Shown here: positions 1 to 6,795 of the stretch, piece after piece
Numbering within the stretch: the stretch's first letter is position 1
Layout of the letters: each line of letters starts with the position of its first letter
Origin: Promethearchaeota archaeon
Lineage (GTDB): Archaea > Asgardarchaeota > Hermodarchaeia > Hermodarchaeales > Hermodarchaeaceae
Direction: 5' to 3'
Assembly: GCA_048939245.1 (NCBI GenBank)
Contig: JBHLPR010000006.1
Span: 1-12,403 of the forward strand
DNA length: 12,403 nt
The notes under the pieces: model-generated
Database searches by the model: none
Seen by the model: the letters and a program-made list of their open reading frames with translations, nothing else
Told to the model about the DNA's origin: nothing
Made by a program: the position numbers and the translations under genes

Positions 1-540
1 ATTGAGGTGCTTACTATAAAAGAGTCAGAACAGCTGATTCGAGAACGAATAAAACATTTTGGTGGAAAGGGGCTTGCTCCTTTCAATTCCGAAGCCATTG
101 AAGAGATCCATCTCCACACCCGGGGTTATCCACGTAGCATTCTTCGATTTTGTGAAAACATCATATCGATGGCTTTCCAAGAAGATACACCTGCAGGAGA
201 CCGAATAACCCGAGAATTTGTCCAACAAGTCATCAAACAACAACCTAGTCCACCACCTGTAACTACTCTTGTACCCAGCGCTTTAGACGAAACTCGATTT
301 ATTGAATCAAGCCCGGCCGTTGAAGATGAAGAATGGTTTGAAGAATTTGATGAACTCACTGCCACTCAACGCGAGATTATAGCGATTACCAAAGAATTGA
401 AGCGGGTAACCTCTTCCATCGTTGCTGAAGAAATTGGGATTACTAAAGGAACCGCATCAAATGAACTCAAGAAGTTATATGATATGCAAAAGCTTCAACG
501 TCGGAAGAGCTATCGTGGATTTGAATACCTACCACGCTAG
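1..540 (+). CDS. AAA+ ATPase C-terminal part (ExeA/GspA-like lid) with Pro/acidic linker and C-terminal winged helix-turn-helix; 5' truncated by window edge
   Basis: The frame is open from base 1 (ATT GAG GTG...). PFNSEAIEEIHLHTRGYPRSILRFC matches the AAA+ lid/sensor-2 pattern F..EA...I...T.G.PR.I..C. The C-terminal LTATQREII...TSSIVAEEIGITKGTASNELKKL...RGFEY is a wHTH. The Walker motifs lie outside the window. Confidence 0.7.
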   Translation: MEVLTIKESEQLIRERIKHFGGKGLAPFNSEAIEEIHLHTRGYPRSILRFCENIISMAFQEDTPAGDRITREFVQQVIKQQPSPPPVTTLVPSALDETRFIESSPAVEDEEWFEEFDELTATQREIIAITKELKRVTSSIVAEEIGITKGTASNELKKLYDMQKLQRRKSYRGFEYLPR

Positions 541-595
541 TGCTTCTACTCCCTTTACAGATTTTTTGAAGAATCAGCCTGAGATGTTTACAGAC

Positions 596-610
596 ACATA
601 TCTTTAAGTG
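596..610 (+). promoter_or_regulatory. Candidate archaeal TATA box for the Rab-like gene
   Basis: TTTAAG at 603-608, about 50 nt upstream of ATG 661, after a T-tract (562-567) that may terminate the upstream gene. Confidence 0.4.
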
Positions 611-660
611 AAACTTCCACGGAATTAAGATAAGAAAAAACCTGCTGCCGGGACCAGCTC

Positions 661-1209
661 ATGTCACACGATGCTTTTGATTACCTTTTCAAAGTTGTAC
701 TAGTCGGTGACGCTGAAGTCGGCAAAACAAGTCTAACCACTCGCTTCGCTTATGGGACTTTCACTGATGGATACATTTCCACCCTTGGTGTTGATTTTAT
801 AGTAAAATCACTTCCCCTCAATAACTATATCGTCAAGCTCCAAGCTTGGGATACCGCTGGGCAAGAAAGGTATGCCGGGGTTCGTCCAATTTACTATCGA
901 GGTGCGAAGGGAGCCTTGTTAGTCTTTGATATCACAATGCGGCAAAGCTTCGTGAATGTAGATAAATGGTATGATCAAATCCGAAAGTATTCTGGTGCTG
1001 ATGTGCCCATTATCCTGGTCGGGAACAAGATTGATCTTGTTGATTCGCGTGTGGTTTCTACTGATGAGGTTCAGGTTTATGCAGCACAAAAGGGTATGCC
1101 CTTTTTTGAAACCAGCGCAAAAACTGATTATGCCGTCAATGACGTTTTTCACAAACTTGCAGAGCTCATTCTGACTACTGAACTTGCTCGAAAAGGGCCG
1201 CAGGATTAG
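661..1209 (+). CDS. Rab-like small GTPase (Ras superfamily), no C-terminal prenylation motif
   Basis: G1 GDAEVGKT, G2 T41, G3 WDTAGQE, G4 GNKID, G5 ETSAK. Rab family motifs LGVDF, KLQAW, YYRGA and LVFDIT, plus N-terminal DYLFK. Confidence 0.95.
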   Translation: MSHDAFDYLFKVVLVGDAEVGKTSLTTRFAYGTFTDGYISTLGVDFIVKSLPLNNYIVKLQAWDTAGQERYAGVRPIYYRGAKGALLVFDITMRQSFVNVDKWYDQIRKYSGADVPIILVGNKIDLVDSRVVSTDEVQVYAAQKGMPFFETSAKTDYAVNDVFHKLAELILTTELARKGPQD

Positions 1210-1245
1210 CCGGTCCCGCTTGCACAAGAAAGGTTAGGTCGAATA

Positions 1246-2454
1246 GTGATGCGGGAGGATGCCTCCAAGTCTGATATTCAACCTCCAAGTCGATTCTGGG
1301 AGCTCCTCGAACGTTATACAGTCCTGAGTGCAAAATATGATGAAGAATCTCGTAGAATTCAAAAAGAGGCGAATAAACGGCTTATTCAGTATTTTCAAGA
1401 AAAATCTCCTGACTTACAACATCATCTCGTGGATACCCAGGCTTTGATTGAATTCATTGATGAGTTTGTCGACCATTTGTTGATTTACTATACCTATTAT
1501 CGCAGCGTTCGACGGAGCATGGCGACCCTGTTTGCCTCGATTGGAATCACAGATCATCGAATGTTCGCTGAAATGGTCCGAGCAACTAGTGACCCACGCG
1601 TAAAGATACAACTCAACGATCTCGATGTGCAAGGCATTGGTTGGTTCCTTCGCCAGTTTCTGGACGAATACCAAGCCGTGGAACGCCATATCACGAAATT
1701 GGCAGGATATATGCCAAAATTGGAGAAAGCAGTTAAACAGACTTATAGTAAAGGAATGCGCCGTTTCCTTCAAGTGCTTCAGTACGCGACTTCGGTTACT
1801 TCCAGGGATTTACGGCTCGATGGTTATGAAAAGGTGGAAACTGCTATTGCGGAAGACGACTTGAGCCAAAAGGTCAATTCGGTCGTTGAGGCAATCGAGT
1901 ATTTTGTAAAAGACGCTCAAAATCATCCCGCCTTTATTCTCACTGAATCGGTTGGCTACTTTGGTTCAGCGGAACTTGAAGAATTTGACAAGAAAATCAC
2001 TTCCTTCAAACGCGTCCATGAGCTGTTTAAAGAACATGTCAGCCTTGCAACTCGAACTCGCTGGGTCTATCAGCGACATCACGCAACACTCTTTTCCAGC
2101 ATTTTCGAATGCTCGCATTTCGAATTGCTGGAGATTCGAGATAAAATACGGAACGGAGCAGAAATGAAGCAATTCCAGGACCGTATTCGTGATTGTTCTG
2201 GCATGCTCCTAGGAGTATCTCAGGCACATTCTCTCTACCTTGAGTATAGCGCCTATTCCAAACAAATGCTTACCCTGGTCGATGCCTATCGAGAAATTGG
2301 AGATTTCTTACAAAGCGAGTTACTGCGGATATTGTACACTATGGAACTACAACGGAACCACTTGTATCTGGAAGTACGAGATGACTTCCGACAAACGTTA
2401 GATGAATTTCAACAAACACTCCTTGAGGTTTGTTCCCTAAGTCCAACTGAATAG
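1246..2454 (+). CDS. Hypothetical soluble, predominantly alpha-helical protein (402 aa)
   Basis: Long ORF 36 nt downstream of the Rab gene on the same strand. Rich in E/L/R/Q/F with amphipathic helical patterning and few Pro. No TM segment or catalytic motif recognised. Confidence 0.8.
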   Translation: MMREDASKSDIQPPSRFWELLERYTVLSAKYDEESRRIQKEANKRLIQYFQEKSPDLQHHLVDTQALIEFIDEFVDHLLIYYTYYRSVRRSMATLFASIGITDHRMFAEMVRATSDPRVKIQLNDLDVQGIGWFLRQFLDEYQAVERHITKLAGYMPKLEKAVKQTYSKGMRRFLQVLQYATSVTSRDLRLDGYEKVETAIAEDDLSQKVNSVVEAIEYFVKDAQNHPAFILTESVGYFGSAELEEFDKKITSFKRVHELFKEHVSLATRTRWVYQRHHATLFSSIFECSHFELLEIRDKIRNGAEMKQFQDRIRDCSGMLLGVSQAHSLYLEYSAYSKQMLTLVDAYREIGDFLQSELLRILYTMELQRNHLYLEVRDDFRQTLDEFQQTLLEVCSLSPTE

Positions 2455-2516
2455 TAGGTTTTTAATGTCTGGTTCAGGGTCCTTTTATTTTCCCGCTGCT
2501 TCAGATACACTTTGGT

Positions 2517-2531
2517 GAAAAGCTTTTTAGC
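2517..2531 (+). promoter_or_regulatory. Candidate BRE/TATA promoter of the sensor-receiver pair
   Basis: GAAAAGC-TTTTTAG about 42 nt upstream of GTG 2573, preceded by T-rich tracts after the 2454 stop. Confidence 0.45.
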
Positions 2532-2572
2532 TTACACTCCTTCTCTCCTTTCCACTGCGATGGTTCGGAAGC

Positions 2573-4597
2573 GTGGGTGTGGTGTTGGAACAAAAATACA
2601 ATAGCCGCTGGTTCAGAAGCTATGAACAGAAACTCATGGCTATCGCATTTCCCATCGCTCTTCTCTTATCGGTATTGCCTCTAATTGTTGGCTTATTTGT
2701 ACCCCAATTTGCCACGGTTTATCTGATAGGTGCCTACCTTGTGGGATTCCTCGCGGTCTTTGGCATTTGTTTAGTTCTTCTTGGGTTTCATAGCAAAATC
2801 GCCAAACGGCTTGCTCTGACAGTGGCTATCAGCTGTTTATTAGGCGCATTAGCTCACTACTGGTTGCTCATTGAAATTTTCTTTTTAGGCTTTCAAATCA
2901 CCTACCCAAATATCTCTGCATACCTTACTGCAGCAGCTAATGTTGTATTCCTTATCGGATTTGCACTGCTATCAATCGAGCAACGAAGGCAATCAAAGCG
3001 ACAAATTGCCGGCTATATTTTGATTACGTTATTTTTTGTTATATGCATTCTTTCAACCTATCAGATGAACCTTACTTACAACCCACCAATATTGCCAGCC
3101 ATCGGGACGGGAGTACGGGTACTCTTAGGTTTTTTCACCGCAATCTTTGCTTGGGCGTTCTACTTCAATCAAGATCCACCACTTGACGTCATTGGGCGGC
3201 CTAGTCGGCTCCTTCTAATGTTCGCCAGCATATTTCTCATTCTTGGCTACACAGTGTTTGCCTTCCAATATGCCCCTGGATGGCCAACAGTTTCAACATT
3301 CTATTATGCTGGGTCCATCTCTGATACTCTCACACTTTTTGCCATCTTTGTTTTTCTTATTGCCATAATGGTTCTTTTTACTGAGACACTTGAAAACATG
3401 GCTACAATTCGCCCTCTTTCAGTGAAATATCAGGTCCCCACTCGGGTTTTGCTTATAATTTCCTTTTTGGTGGGTACGACCCTAACTGTCACTATCTCTA
3501 TTACCCTAATTGGACGTGTCCTTCGAATATATCTTAATCCCATTGATGCACTGGTCGCATTGCAGACCATTGGTGTCGGTCTGCTGATGGGGTTCGGATT
3601 GATAATTCTCATATTTAGTGCCATTGGGTATCTGCTCTCTCGGTGGTTATATCGTCCATTAGAGCAGCTTGAACATGAAGCTATGGCCGTAACCGAACCC
3701 GGTATTATCTCCTATACAGAACCTCCTGGATTGGTATTCACGGAACTCCAAGGCGTTTCCGACAGCTTTACCGAGGTGCTAAACGAATTAGGAAGAGTTC
3801 GAGCTGAGCTGCGTCGGTTCACCATTACTCAACGCCAGCTTCGGGTTCCTTCAACCTCCCAATTAAGCAGGTTGGACTATTATCTAGCAATTCTAAACAA
3901 TACGATAACCAATCGGCTTCAAACCATCATGAATTTCATAGAACTTGGACGGGCAACTTCGAACCAAGAAGAACAGACCCAACTTCTTGATCTAATCCAA
4001 ACTGAAATCAACGAGATTCATTACTTGCTAAAAAGCATTCAACTTCTACGGCTCATCGATACCCAGGCATTACCCGAGTTCCACCGGTTTGATTTGGTTC
4101 CAATGCTGACCAATCTTATCCAAAAACTCCAAGAAGCCATTCCCGATTCCAGAAACCAAATTTCCTTATCTTTCCCTGAAAAAAAGGCCTTGGTGTTTGC
4201 TAATGAATATGTAATGCAGATTTTTCAATCATTATTCCGGTTGGTTTTAGAACGTGATATGGGTGGTCCTGTAACCATTGAAGTCAAGCTATCAACAACT
4301 AAGGAATTAGGTGTTGATTACTGGCAAATCGACATATTCCATTCCAAATGGATACTTTCTGACATTGAAAGGGTTCTCTTATTTCGATCGGACCCCGAAC
4401 AACCACAAAAAGCCAATCCCAATCTCCTTCTGGTTCCAGCTCTGGTTGAATATTTCCGTGGAAAATTCCATGTGAAAAATATCGTGATTGATGACCCACA
4501 ATATGGTACTGTCCTTCAAGTTTTATTACCGCACGCAGACAGTCGCAAACCCCAACCTCAGGAAGAAGAACCAGACTTAGGGAGTGGAGCTGAGTGA
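2573..4597 (+). CDS. Multi-pass membrane sensor with HAMP and degenerate HisKA/HATPase domains (histidine pseudokinase)
   Basis: About 10 hydrophobic segments in aa ~20-357. HAMP: RPLEQLEHEAMAV...TELQGVSDSFTEVLNEL. DHp-like: YYLAILNNTITNRLQTIMNFIEL. The C-terminus LVPALVEYFRGKFHVKN...DDPQYGTVLQVLLP matches the end of archaeal HATPase_c domains. Catalytic boxes are altered. Start codon uncertain. Confidence 0.8.
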   Translation: MGVVLEQKYNSRWFRSYEQKLMAIAFPIALLLSVLPLIVGLFVPQFATVYLIGAYLVGFLAVFGICLVLLGFHSKIAKRLALTVAISCLLGALAHYWLLIEIFFLGFQITYPNISAYLTAAANVVFLIGFALLSIEQRRQSKRQIAGYILITLFFVICILSTYQMNLTYNPPILPAIGTGVRVLLGFFTAIFAWAFYFNQDPPLDVIGRPSRLLLMFASIFLILGYTVFAFQYAPGWPTVSTFYYAGSISDTLTLFAIFVFLIAIMVLFTETLENMATIRPLSVKYQVPTRVLLIISFLVGTTLTVTISITLIGRVLRIYLNPIDALVALQTIGVGLLMGFGLIILIFSAIGYLLSRWLYRPLEQLEHEAMAVTEPGIISYTEPPGLVFTELQGVSDSFTEVLNELGRVRAELRRFTITQRQLRVPSTSQLSRLDYYLAILNNTITNRLQTIMNFIELGRATSNQEEQTQLLDLIQTEINEIHYLLKSIQLLRLIDTQALPEFHRFDLVPMLTNLIQKLQEAIPDSRNQISLSFPEKKALVFANEYVMQIFQSLFRLVLERDMGGPVTIEVKLSTTKELGVDYWQIDIFHSKWILSDIERVLLFRSDPEQPQKANPNLLLVPALVEYFRGKFHVKNIVIDDPQYGTVLQVLLPHADSRKPQPQEEEPDLGSGAE

Positions 4598-4965
4598 CAA
4601 CTGCAGTCATGGTGATTTCTCCACAGAATTCTCTTCGTACTTCTGTCGAACAGTTAATCGAACAAGGACACTATCTTGTATGTCCGGGCGTCGATAATCT
4701 TGGAGGATTTCGCCACGCTTTGAATGCAACGGAAACAACACCAAATGTCATTATTGTGGATTATTGGCTCAGTCGTTCACAAACTATCGATTTCATCCGG
4801 GGTTTGAAAAATCAGGGCTTTGCGGTTATTCTCATGGGAACCAGTTTCTTGGGTAAAGATGTGGCAACGCAGGAAAAGGTAGAATTCATCGAGAAACCAT
4901 TTACACAAAATGAGCTACTCAAAGCGATTACTAGGGTGAATAAGGGAACCACCACTAAACCGTGA
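4594..4965 (+). CDS. Stand-alone atypical response-regulator receiver (REC) protein
   Basis: PNVIIVDYWL (D56), VILMG and FIEKPF (K101) fit the REC fold. The start GTG overlaps the upstream TGA (GTGA), with GGAG just upstream. Confidence 0.85.
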   Translation: MTTAVMVISPQNSLRTSVEQLIEQGHYLVCPGVDNLGGFRHALNATETTPNVIIVDYWLSRSQTIDFIRGLKNQGFAVILMGTSFLGKDVATQEKVEFIEKPFTQNELLKAITRVNKGTTTKP

Positions 4966-5797
4966 TAAGTTTTCGGACACCTGACTCTGAAACGTACAAA
5001 GCTTTACCTGAAATCGGTCCACGATACTCTCGGCAGGAAAAAAGACTCATGATCTTACCGTTAAAAAATTCATGAAATCCTTGTGGAAATACTTCATGCG
5101 ACCGCACAATGAGTTCCAACGAATTTTGAGTCATGAACTCCTCGGTAATATCTTGTCCAAAAGTTCTAATTCGGCTTCCCCGCATCGACGGTCCAAAACC
5201 TTTCAGTGTTTCCCGTGGATCATTCCACAATAATTGAAATGTGACAGGATGTTGGGGTTCGATTTCACGGGGCAGCTTATCAATCTCCTCTACACGACTA
5301 AGACTCTCAGAGATGCCACCATGTACTGCAAAGATTTTTTGTCTTTGACTAATCGCAGCTATCGGCAGATGTGCAAATGTTTCCCAGTACTGTTCAATGA
5401 TATTTCCTAATGCGTTTTGAACCGTGTCATAAAATCCATAAGAGCGATTAATGCTTGGGGTCTCATGGTTTCCGCGGAGAAGCATTACTCGATTGGGTGC
5501 TTGGATTTTCAACGTAAACAGCAAATTCATGTTTTCAATCTGATGAGGACCTCGGTCCACATAATCGCCTAAAAATACAAAGACAGCATGACTATCCCAA
5601 TACCGCATCAAAAGACGTTTTGTTGCATCCCAATCACCATGGGTATCGCCAACGAAAATCAACGGTTTATCCAGTAACTTCAGTAATCGTGGTTCCTGTT
5701 GTAGCAGGGGCAGGACACCTTCTAGAAGCTGCAGAACATCTTCTCTGAGATACTGTTCAACCCTAGCGACTACTTCAGTGATCATGGGGGGCAACAA
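4955..5797 (-). CDS. Ser/Thr protein phosphatase, PPP family (PP1/PP2A-like)
   Basis: GDTHG, GDYVDRG, LRGNHE, VHGG, LLWNDP, FG, RSHE, GF..F and SLFS motifs in canonical order. An alternative start is ATG at 5785. Confidence 0.93.
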   Translation of the reverse strand: MLPPMITEVVARVEQYLREDVLQLLEGVLPLLQQEPRLLKLLDKPLIFVGDTHGDWDATKRLLMRYWDSHAVFVFLGDYVDRGPHQIENMNLLFTLKIQAPNRVMLLRGNHETPSINRSYGFYDTVQNALGNIIEQYWETFAHLPIAAISQRQKIFAVHGGISESLSRVEEIDKLPREIEPQHPVTFQLLWNDPRETLKGFGPSMRGSRIRTFGQDITEEFMTQNSLELIVRSHEVFPQGFHEFFNGKIMSLFSCREYRGPISGKALYVSESGVRKLITV

Positions 5798-5856: not shown

Positions 5857-6795
5857 CTAATCTGCTAAAATCTGAGTTCCCGCTTCACCCCGAATCGCTC
5901 GTGCAATATTTTCAGGTGAAGTGATGATCGCTAGCTCCCCACCCTCCTCAAGAAATTGGATGACTGATTCGATTTTCGGAGCCATGGATCCAGGGGCAAA
6001 GTGGCCTTCTTTGAGATATTGTTTCGCTTCCTTAGCTGTCATCCTATCAATACCCTTTTGGTTTGCCTTTCCAAAGTTCAAATAGACCTTATCAATTGAC
6101 GTTGAGATAAGGAACCCCTTTGCACCCAACGCTTTACAAAGCAGAGCAGATGCCCGGTCCTTATCAATCACCGCTGCTACGCCTTTTAGTTTCTGATTCT
6201 CTTCCACAACCGGGATCCCTCCACCGCCCACTGTAATTACAATGAATCCATCGTTCAGTAAATTGTCAACAGCTTGGGCTTCAATGACTTTTTTCGGAAT
6301 GGGTGAAGGAACCACACGTCGCCATCCACGTCCCGCATCCTCAACGATATGCCAGCCTTCCTTACCCCTTCGGTTAGCAGTCTCCTCATCCATGAAAGAA
6401 CCAATGGGCTTGTTAGGGTGGGTAAAAGCTGAATCATTCTGATCAACCAGGACTTGTGTAACTACGGTAACTGGCAACTTGTTGATTTTCCGGCGACGAA
6501 GCTCAGTTAAAAGGATTTGCTGGAGCATATACCCAATTGCACCTTGTGTATCTGCCCCACAAAAATCAAGAGGTACCTCATGCAATTCACCAGCAGCTAA
6601 CTCAGAGCGTCGTAAAATGAACCCCACTTGGGGACCGTTACCATGCGTGATAGCAACATCCCACCCCTCTTCCACTAGATCTACAATGTGGGGTACTGTT
6701 TGTGCAGCGGCAGCATATTGGTCTGGCACAGTTTTGTGCGCTGCATCTTTGATTAGGGAGTTGCCTCCAATGGCAACAACGATTCGTTTAGCCAT
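5857..6795 (-). CDS. arcC: Carbamate kinase
   Basis: VVAIGGNSL, ITHGNGPQVG, GADTQGAIGY, TQVLVD...KPIG, EDAGRGWRRVVPSP, GGGGIPV, AVIDKD, GHFAPGSMAPK. Confidence 0.96.
   Translation of the reverse strand: MAKRIVVAIGGNSLIKDAAHKTVPDQYAAAAQTVPHIVDLVEEGWDVAITHGNGPQVGFILRRSELAAGELHEVPLDFCGADTQGAIGYMLQQILLTELRRRKINKLPVTVVTQVLVDQNDSAFTHPNKPIGSFMDEETANRRGKEGWHIVEDAGRGWRRVVPSPIPKKVIEAQAVDNLLNDGFIVITVGGGGIPVVEENQKLKGVAAVIDKDRASALLCKALGAKGFLISTSIDKVYLNFGKANQKGIDRMTAKEAKQYLKEGHFAPGSMAPKIESVIQFLEEGGELAIITSPENIARAIRGEAGTQILAD

Follow-up and report, generated by a model that had tools for sequence, protein, structure and literature searches.

A tail-less Rab-like GTPase and its likely helical partner in a probable mosaic of gene units in an Asgard archaeon

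Introduction

We analysed a stretch of 12,403 nucleotides (the window) from a Promethearchaeota archaeon (assembly GCA_048939245.1, contig JBHLPR010000006.1), which forms the first 12.4 kb of contig C28 in a genome of 2.52 Mb that is 88% complete and belongs to the Asgard archaea (Thorarchaeota-type). It carries a Rab-like small GTPase gene followed by a gene for an orphan helical protein, a membrane protein resembling a histidine kinase, a receiver-like protein and, on the opposite strand, a PPP-type phosphatase. An original prediction, made from the sequence alone, regarded these genes as a candidate hybrid signalling island, in which a membrane receptor with a dead kinase could recruit or control the GTPase. 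Asgard archaea have indeed been proposed to mix two-component parts with eukaryote-like regulators (Liu et al., 10.1101/2020.10.19.343400). GTPase-activating proteins and guanine nucleotide exchange factors for the Asgard Rab-like GTPases are unidentified, and Asgard GTPase genes generally do not lie in regulator operons (Tran et al. 2024, PMC10933270).

Our comparative approach retrieved the orthologous regions from 18 genomes of the same family, covering two genera and 72-91% complete, and mapped every window gene onto them, which established gene identities, motif states, spacing and the conservation or variation of gene order. We refer to the 402-aa helical protein as H402, to the 674-aa membrane protein as M674, to the receiver-like protein as REC and to carbamate kinase as CK.

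Results

The list of open reading frames (ORFs) together with family scans bore out the six predicted genes and their layout: five co-oriented genes, for an ATPase with a winged helix-turn-helix domain (wHTH), the Rab-like GTPase, H402, M674 and REC, converge on the phosphatase gene, whose 3' end overlaps the REC gene by 11 nt (4955-4965; Table 1).

Table 1. Coordinates of the features in and beside the predicted island (positions in the window)
Feature	Position	Strand	Evidence or remark
AAA_22 ATPase with C-terminal wHTH, C-terminal 179 of 386 aa	1..540	+	AAA_22 E 2e-8 on the full-length ortholog; weak MarR/HTH matches
Conserved TTTAAGTGA(C) motif, ~55 nt upstream of the Rab start	603..612	+	core TTAAGTGA invariant, 13 orthologous loci
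Rab-like small GTPase, 182 aa	661..1209	+	PF00071 E 2.9e-58
H402, orphan all-helical protein, 402 aa	1249..2454	+	ORF opens at GTG 1246; no family match
H402-M674 spacer, 118 nt	2455..2572	+	T-runs 2458-2462 and 2482-2492; promoter-like AAAGCTTTTTAG near 2520
M674, membrane pseudo-histidine-kinase, 674 aa	2573..4597	+	AF2 model, family profile, Foldseek
REC, atypical single-domain receiver, 123 aa	4594..4965	+	PF00072 29.2 bits vs cut-off 30.2
PP1-like PPP Ser/Thr phosphatase, 280 aa	4955..5797	-	Metallophos E 2e-27; PP1 top PDB matches, E 4e-45
Carbamate kinase, co-oriented with the phosphatase, 59 nt upstream	5857..6795	-	NCBIfam arcC E 2e-111

Judged by its sequence, the GTPase is nearer to Rab than to Ras, Rho, Arf or Ran. 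Rab1/3/35/11/8/10/43, Ypt1 and Sec4 account for all of its best 60 PDB sequence matches (E 2.5e-51 to ~1e-42), and the G1-G5 motifs, as read from the sequence, are intact (P-loop GDAEVGKT, T41, WDTAGQ68E, NKID and ETSAK). In a by-eye comparison with the published consensus, made without a profile, the RabF motifs LGVDF, KLQAWDTAGQE, YYRGA and LVFDIT fit and RabF3 (RYAGVR) diverges. The protein is tail-less, as had been predicted: it ends without a C-terminal tail, contains no cysteine at all and has no C-terminal cysteine motif for geranylgeranylation. Thor-Rab (PDB 7EZB; Tran et al. 2024, PMC10933270), which likewise has no C-terminal prenylation cysteine, is similar in its Rab-type G domain, in its best matches to Rab1, Rab3 and Rab35 and in having many paralogs per genome (33 Ras-family matches in the genome studied here). 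In contrast to Thor-Rab, the window GTPase has a fixed downstream partner gene, which belongs to an undescribed helical family.

The predicted joint transcription of the Rab and H402 genes agrees with the layout of the locus, which looks like a bicistronic unit with its own promoter, because an invariant motif lies upstream, a T6 run (561-566) follows the ATPase stop and the two genes are separated by a spacer of 39 nt with a Shine-Dalgarno-like GGTTAGGT and no T-run or terminator-like run. The core TTAAGTGA of the upstream motif is identical in all 13 loci of both genera and its flanks vary; the motif is probably a TATA box or other promoter element, or an operator, of the Rab-H402 unit. The two genes lie on the same strand with a gap of 18-54 nt in 12 of the 13 loci, and in the remaining one (G009) the ORFs overlap by 7 nt. 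This close spacing has been kept despite sequence divergence down to 43% identity.

The alignment indicates that H402 probably starts at ATG 1249 rather than at GTG 1246. No Pfam or NCBIfam family matches the protein. Its AF2 model (pLDDT 85.9) is entirely helical and resembles two four-helix-bundle halves (~65-235 and 257-397), whose origin by internal duplication found no significant support in an hhalign comparison of the two (E 0.25, 26 columns). Foldseek against the PDB returned nothing below E 0.06, and an exhaustive structural scan with VIA-align wide recovered generic four-helix bundles only (best Z 11.1, with a meaningful level of ~13 for helical proteins); neither connected H402 with a known GAP, GEF or effector fold. 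No TBC, DENN, Vps9, Sec7 or longin fold surfaced in these structural scans, a result that is not decisive against those folds. The best Atlas clusters (0.95) pointed to the dynein-tail family DHC_N1, a match of low recognition value that we set aside as uninformative. A profile search over 1.8 billion representative proteins yielded 10 cluster representatives of the H402 family, none longer than 418 aa and hence no fused forms. Genome searches place the H402 family in 19 of 301 genomes, all from a single family of the phylum, and L152, L355, S357 and R370 alone are conserved throughout its members.

A tree of 54 H402-family members resolved three deep clades (A, B and D, with H402 itself in A) and one large derived clade. 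The four members of clade B, from the sister genus, all lie beside small GTPase genes, and in clade D six of nine have a GTPase neighbour and two more are at contig ends. The spacing in clade D is looser: the GTPase lies 179 nt upstream in G012 and ~1.1-1.3 kb upstream in five other genomes, with an EamA-type transporter gene between the GTPase and the helical gene in all three loci examined. At least three GTPase subfamilies adjoin members of the family.

Could these adjacencies, including that of Rab and H402, merely reflect chance and recent common descent, with no functional pair among them? With 33 Ras-family genes in the genome some adjacency is to be expected, all compared loci come from one family, and the H402 family's largest clade does not adjoin GTPases. 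However, three deep clades adjoin GTPases of different subfamilies, the 18-54 nt spacing outlasts the divergence, and M674 and REC, described below, overlap and have both lost their phosphotransfer residues. From 33 GTPases in 2.5 Mb we estimate, as a rough background, that ~5% of random genes lie within ~1.5 kb of a Ras-family gene. The repeated association of H402-family members with GTPases is thus unlikely to have arisen by chance, because only about one random gene in twenty would have a GTPase that close, although co-duplicated pairs do not count as independent events. We therefore regard chance throughout as an improbable explanation and keep the Rab-H402 pairing as a supported one.

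Two further H402 observations concern individual loci. A paralog at G000:C102:1466-3980 has no GTPase link and lies two genes from a 150-aa ORF whose sequence resembles a dual-specificity/PTP-type phosphatase. Furthermore, in G007 (L031, G007:C20) the H402 gene has an in-frame TGA and is split into pieces of 125 and 309 aa, with M674 and the phosphatase each in two pieces as well; these splits point to local gene decay or poor assembly.

The second pair of the window is formed by M674 and REC. The AF2 model of M674 (pLDDT 70.5) comprises ~10 membrane helices, a linker helix, a DHp domain and a CA-like domain, with the cytosolic part at residues ~380-674. Foldseek listed 192 PDB matches at E<=1e-3, led by WalK, LvrB, RetS, HK853 and DivL, with kinases in all top rows, and the family profile matches the kinase structures 3a0r (ThkA) and 7z8n, in which an Asn of M674 aligns to the His of AHEIRNP (3a0r). 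This phospho-acceptor position holds Asn in all orthologs of the genus, Ser or Tyr in two aligned sister-genus sequences and His in none. The N, G1 and G2 ATP boxes are degenerate (SLFRLVL, HSKWI and NLLLV) and unrecognisable in the genus; Pfam HATPase_c was not detected in the window protein even at E 10, and a sister-genus ortholog still scores 32.5 bits. M674 thus retains the DHp plus CA fold of a histidine kinase and has neither the H-box His nor the ATP boxes. Like H402, the M674 family was not found outside this one family.

REC aligns over its full length to the NtrC4 receiver 1zit (E 0.002) and falls just under the Pfam cut-off for receivers. Of the residues that align with the 1zit acceptor positions, D56 and K101 do not vary among 13 orthologs, and T83 is Thr in 11 of them and Asn in two. 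None of the 13 has the Mg-binding acidic pair: the DD position reads Ser or Thr and then Pro, or Ala in one ortholog. In the window M674 and REC overlap by 4 nt, and the gap ranges from -4 to +14 nt in nine of 13 loci; one locus is disrupted, and three larger negative gaps are probably due to over-extended ORF starts. The original description of a dead kinase and an atypical receiver as a tight pair is therefore upheld by the overlap, by the change from His to Asn and by the loss of both the ATP boxes and the acidic pair.

Genome-wide, we found only five HATPase_c matches and three canonical receivers. On contig C55 a canonical kinase, itself a weak M674 paralog, is directly followed by a receiver in the same layout. 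Most simply, M674-REC stems from duplication of a two-component pair whose two phosphotransfer partners then decayed jointly; as a degenerate copy of a normal kinase-receiver pair it would no longer be able to pass phosphate in the usual way. By analogy to DivL of Caulobacter and RetS of Pseudomonas, the pair probably signals by phosphate-independent protein-protein contact. Both proteins, with their DHp plus CA fold, rank near the top of the structural matches of M674, which, like them, has no usable phospho-acceptor or catalysis, suggesting signalling by protein contacts. In contrast to them, M674 has a family-specific membrane domain of ~10 helices, Asn instead of Tyr where the His would be, and a partner receiver without the metal-binding acidic pair.

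Relatives in the genus are collinear over the entire window, CK, a PLP-dependent dehydratase gene (PALP), a radical-SAM gene and a GNAT gene included. Because these adjacent metabolic genes are conserved equally well, the conserved order within the genus reflects shared ancestry and not selection, and is uninformative on function. More can be learned from the variation. An M28 peptidase gene (686-690 aa) lies between H402 (or Rab) and M674 in G003, G004, G007, G009, G011 and G012, and in the sister genus a radical-SAM gene is also placed between H402 and M674. H402 is missing in G006 and G012. REC is missing in the sister genus, where M674 overlaps the phosphatase gene directly. The two halves behave independently, because of the intervening genes, the separate losses and a spacer with terminator- and promoter-like signals; going by these sequence signals, the spacer 2455-2572 is the boundary between the Rab-H402 and the M674-REC units. 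The predicted separate promoters near ~603 and ~2524 find counterparts in the conserved motif upstream of Rab and in the promoter-like AAAGCTTTTTAG within this spacer.

The intervening peptidase (679-690 aa in the full set) has Ig-like domains and an N-terminal signal or anchor; it is located at L026:8085-10151 in G003, with equivalents in G004, G007, G009, G011, G012, G015, G016 and G018. It is absent from the window, and the closest copy in the genome, at C29:3275-5314 (E 3e-164), is divergent from a 767-aa M674 kinase paralog. In G009 (L030, G009:C73:3136-7326) the peptidase and M674 frames read as one frame of 1396 aa, either because the genes are naturally fused or through an error of sequencing or assembly.

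The phosphatase has intact PPP motifs (GDTHGD, GDYVDRG and GNHE) and is the sole PPP gene of this genome. Of 301 genomes sampled from the phylum, 215 encode this phosphatase, almost always once, and at 14 phosphatase loci outside the family no M674, REC, Ras-family, H402 or CK gene lies within 1.5 kb. In these properties, namely the three signature motifs, the PP1 catalytic subunits as best matches and the widespread single-copy occurrence, it resembles other archaeal and eukaryotic PP1-like phosphatases; it differs only in its pairing with CK, which is specific to this family. CK precedes the phosphatase on the same strand in 15 of 15 family loci of both genera, with a gap of 3-72 nt, or -4, a coupling of a metabolic kinase to a protein phosphatase. 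Across loci the distance from the phosphatase 3' end to REC varies from -21 to +19 nt. The phosphatase is best read as the general PPP enzyme of the genome and not as part of the plus-strand units; it would probably be transcribed with CK from the minus strand, and its 3' overlap with REC would reflect a compact genome.

These observations bear directly on the integrated module that had been proposed, in which the membrane pseudokinase would be a receptor that acts on the tail-less Rab by recruitment or control, H402 would serve as adaptor, REC would provide the output and the PPP phosphatase would reset the system. In its favour, the genes fit into 5.8 kb and five share one orientation; the Rab has no lipid anchor and hence needs a membrane partner (PMC10933270); and in the sister-genus genome G018 the ATPase-Rab-H402 and M674-phosphatase genes are on one contig. 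Moreover, membrane kinases beside small GTPases have precedents in the actinobacterial conservon, which consists of the CvnA kinase, the CvnB roadblock protein, CvnC and the MglA-like GTPase CvnD, and in the neighbourhoods of Group 1 Rup GTPases, which contain a coiled-coil protein and a kinase (Wuichet and Sogaard-Andersen 2015, PMC4316618). The window shares with both a membrane kinase-type protein and a small GTPase in one neighbourhood, and with Rup also a helical cytoplasmic protein. Unlike those single conserved operons, the kinase-like gene here forms a separate unit that is split off in relatives, so that the window genes do not make up one operon; the GTPase is Rab-like and not MglA, and the window contains no MglB or roadblock gene. 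Against a single module, furthermore, one or two unrelated genes separate the halves in most relatives, the spacer carries terminator-like and promoter-like signals, H402 or REC has been lost singly, the phosphatase is near-universal, single-copy and tied to CK, and the metabolic genes alongside are no less conserved. The claim that all parts and the phosphatase form one module accordingly lacks support, and we consider it very unlikely.

The proposed comparison of synteny across Asgard genomes led to the same outcome: the gene order reaches one sister genus only, in pieces, interrupted by peptidase and radical-SAM genes and without the receiver. Since the H402 and M674 families are absent outside one family, Asgard-wide synteny cannot give positive support. 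That Rab and H402 are physically coupled to M674-REC, with the dead receptor as a membrane dock or input for the GTPase switch and the phosphatase on the same complex, is highly doubtful. If true, this coupling would be a lineage-specific bridge between two signalling styles.

For a GTPase connected to two-component parts, a locus on contig C46 of the same genome (G000:C46:33907-37170, minus strand) is more promising than the window: there, genes for a KaiC/RecA-like ATPase (258 aa), a Rab-like GTPase (184 aa), a KaiC-like ATPase (488 aa) and a receiver are tightly packed and co-oriented. This receiver (128 aa) is canonical with an intact DD pair, and a 1131-aa histidine kinase is encoded 3 kb from the GTPase run (G000:C46:40322-43717).

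On the upstream side, the ATPase-wHTH gene is whole, because its missing N-terminus is found on the overlapping contig C67 (G000:C67:4046-4761), at the end of that contig. The adjoining region, C67:2053-3988, abuts the window start and encodes, in this order, up371 (369 aa, at C67:2053-3162) and a pair of overlapping small ORFs of 67 and 93 aa, of which the latter is Cys-rich, followed by the ATPase. The N-terminus of up371 is longin-like, and its nearest Atlas clusters are of the Folliculin/C9orf72-type longin-DENN class (score 0.81, a lead only); it has no Pfam match and no PDB match in a profile search. In another family, homologs of the ATPase (38% identity) keep a divergently placed longin-like neighbour of 140 aa and have no GTPase downstream.

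This arrangement raises the alternative that the true unit is a larger Rab-regulatory neighbourhood, consisting of the longin/DENN-like protein, the two small proteins, the ATPase-wHTH, Rab and H402, with M674-REC and the phosphatase as bystanders. The order up371, small ORFs, ATPase, Rab and H402 is co-oriented in both genera as well as across the abutting contig, up371 has its Folliculin/C9orf72-type lead, and an Asgard operon of a LAMTOR1-like roadblock protein, a Rab-like GTPase and a DENN protein has been predicted (Liu et al., 10.1101/2020.10.19.343400), of which this neighbourhood would then be a relative. Like that operon, the locus has a Rab-like GTPase near a candidate longin/DENN-type protein (up371, as a lead). 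Unlike it, no LAMTOR1-like roadblock gene was seen here, the ATPase-wHTH and two small ORFs stand between up371 and Rab, and the direct neighbour of Rab is the all-helical orphan rather than a DENN or longin protein. In addition, the ATPase and its longin-like neighbour occur without any Rab in another family, the Rab carries its own conserved upstream motif behind the T6 run that follows the ATPase gene, and up371 has neither the Pfam nor the PDB match that would back its assignment. Although a live rival and more plausible than the integrated module, the larger neighbourhood is in our view rather unlikely, and we prefer to let the ATPase-wHTH group with the genes upstream of the window, the longin/DENN-like candidate and the two small ORFs, as it would in a mosaic.

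Discussion

We read the stretch as a mosaic of four separate units which are kept together only through the close kinship of the compared genomes (probability roughly 0.7). The links supported within it are only two, that of Rab with H402 and, separately, that of M674 with REC. Several points weigh against this reading. The case for co-transcription and for binding between Rab and H402 is drawn solely from spacing and synteny, and all comparisons were made within one family of close, non-independent relatives. H402 is absent from two species and hence dispensable, and the derived clade of its family, with 28 members the largest, is not GTPase-linked except for one divergent pair. Moreover, all five plus-strand genes point the same way in either genus, which leaves room for read-through or a looser functional neighbourhood, and at the completeness of the relatives' genomes some missing genes are possibly just unassembled.

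The new element in these data is the H402 family as a recurring neighbour of GTPases. H402 itself is likely to be a dedicated GTPase-binding partner, whether as regulator or as effector/adaptor. It most likely binds the Rab as a dedicated regulator or effector and may also supply the localisation that the absent lipid tail of the Rab cannot.

A hybrid island would be the more remarkable finding, but our data do not bear it out. The kinase and receiver that degenerated together are of modest interest, as a neat archaeal case of two-component evolution towards phosphate independence. For the dozens of Asgard Rab-like GTPases, assigning a regulator or effector to any single one is still an unsolved task, in which genome layout rarely helps (Tran et al. 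2024, PMC10933270). The useful outcome of our comparison is a matched Rab-like GTPase and a helical protein of an undescribed family, which together would provide a concrete pair for binding, exchange and hydrolysis assays.

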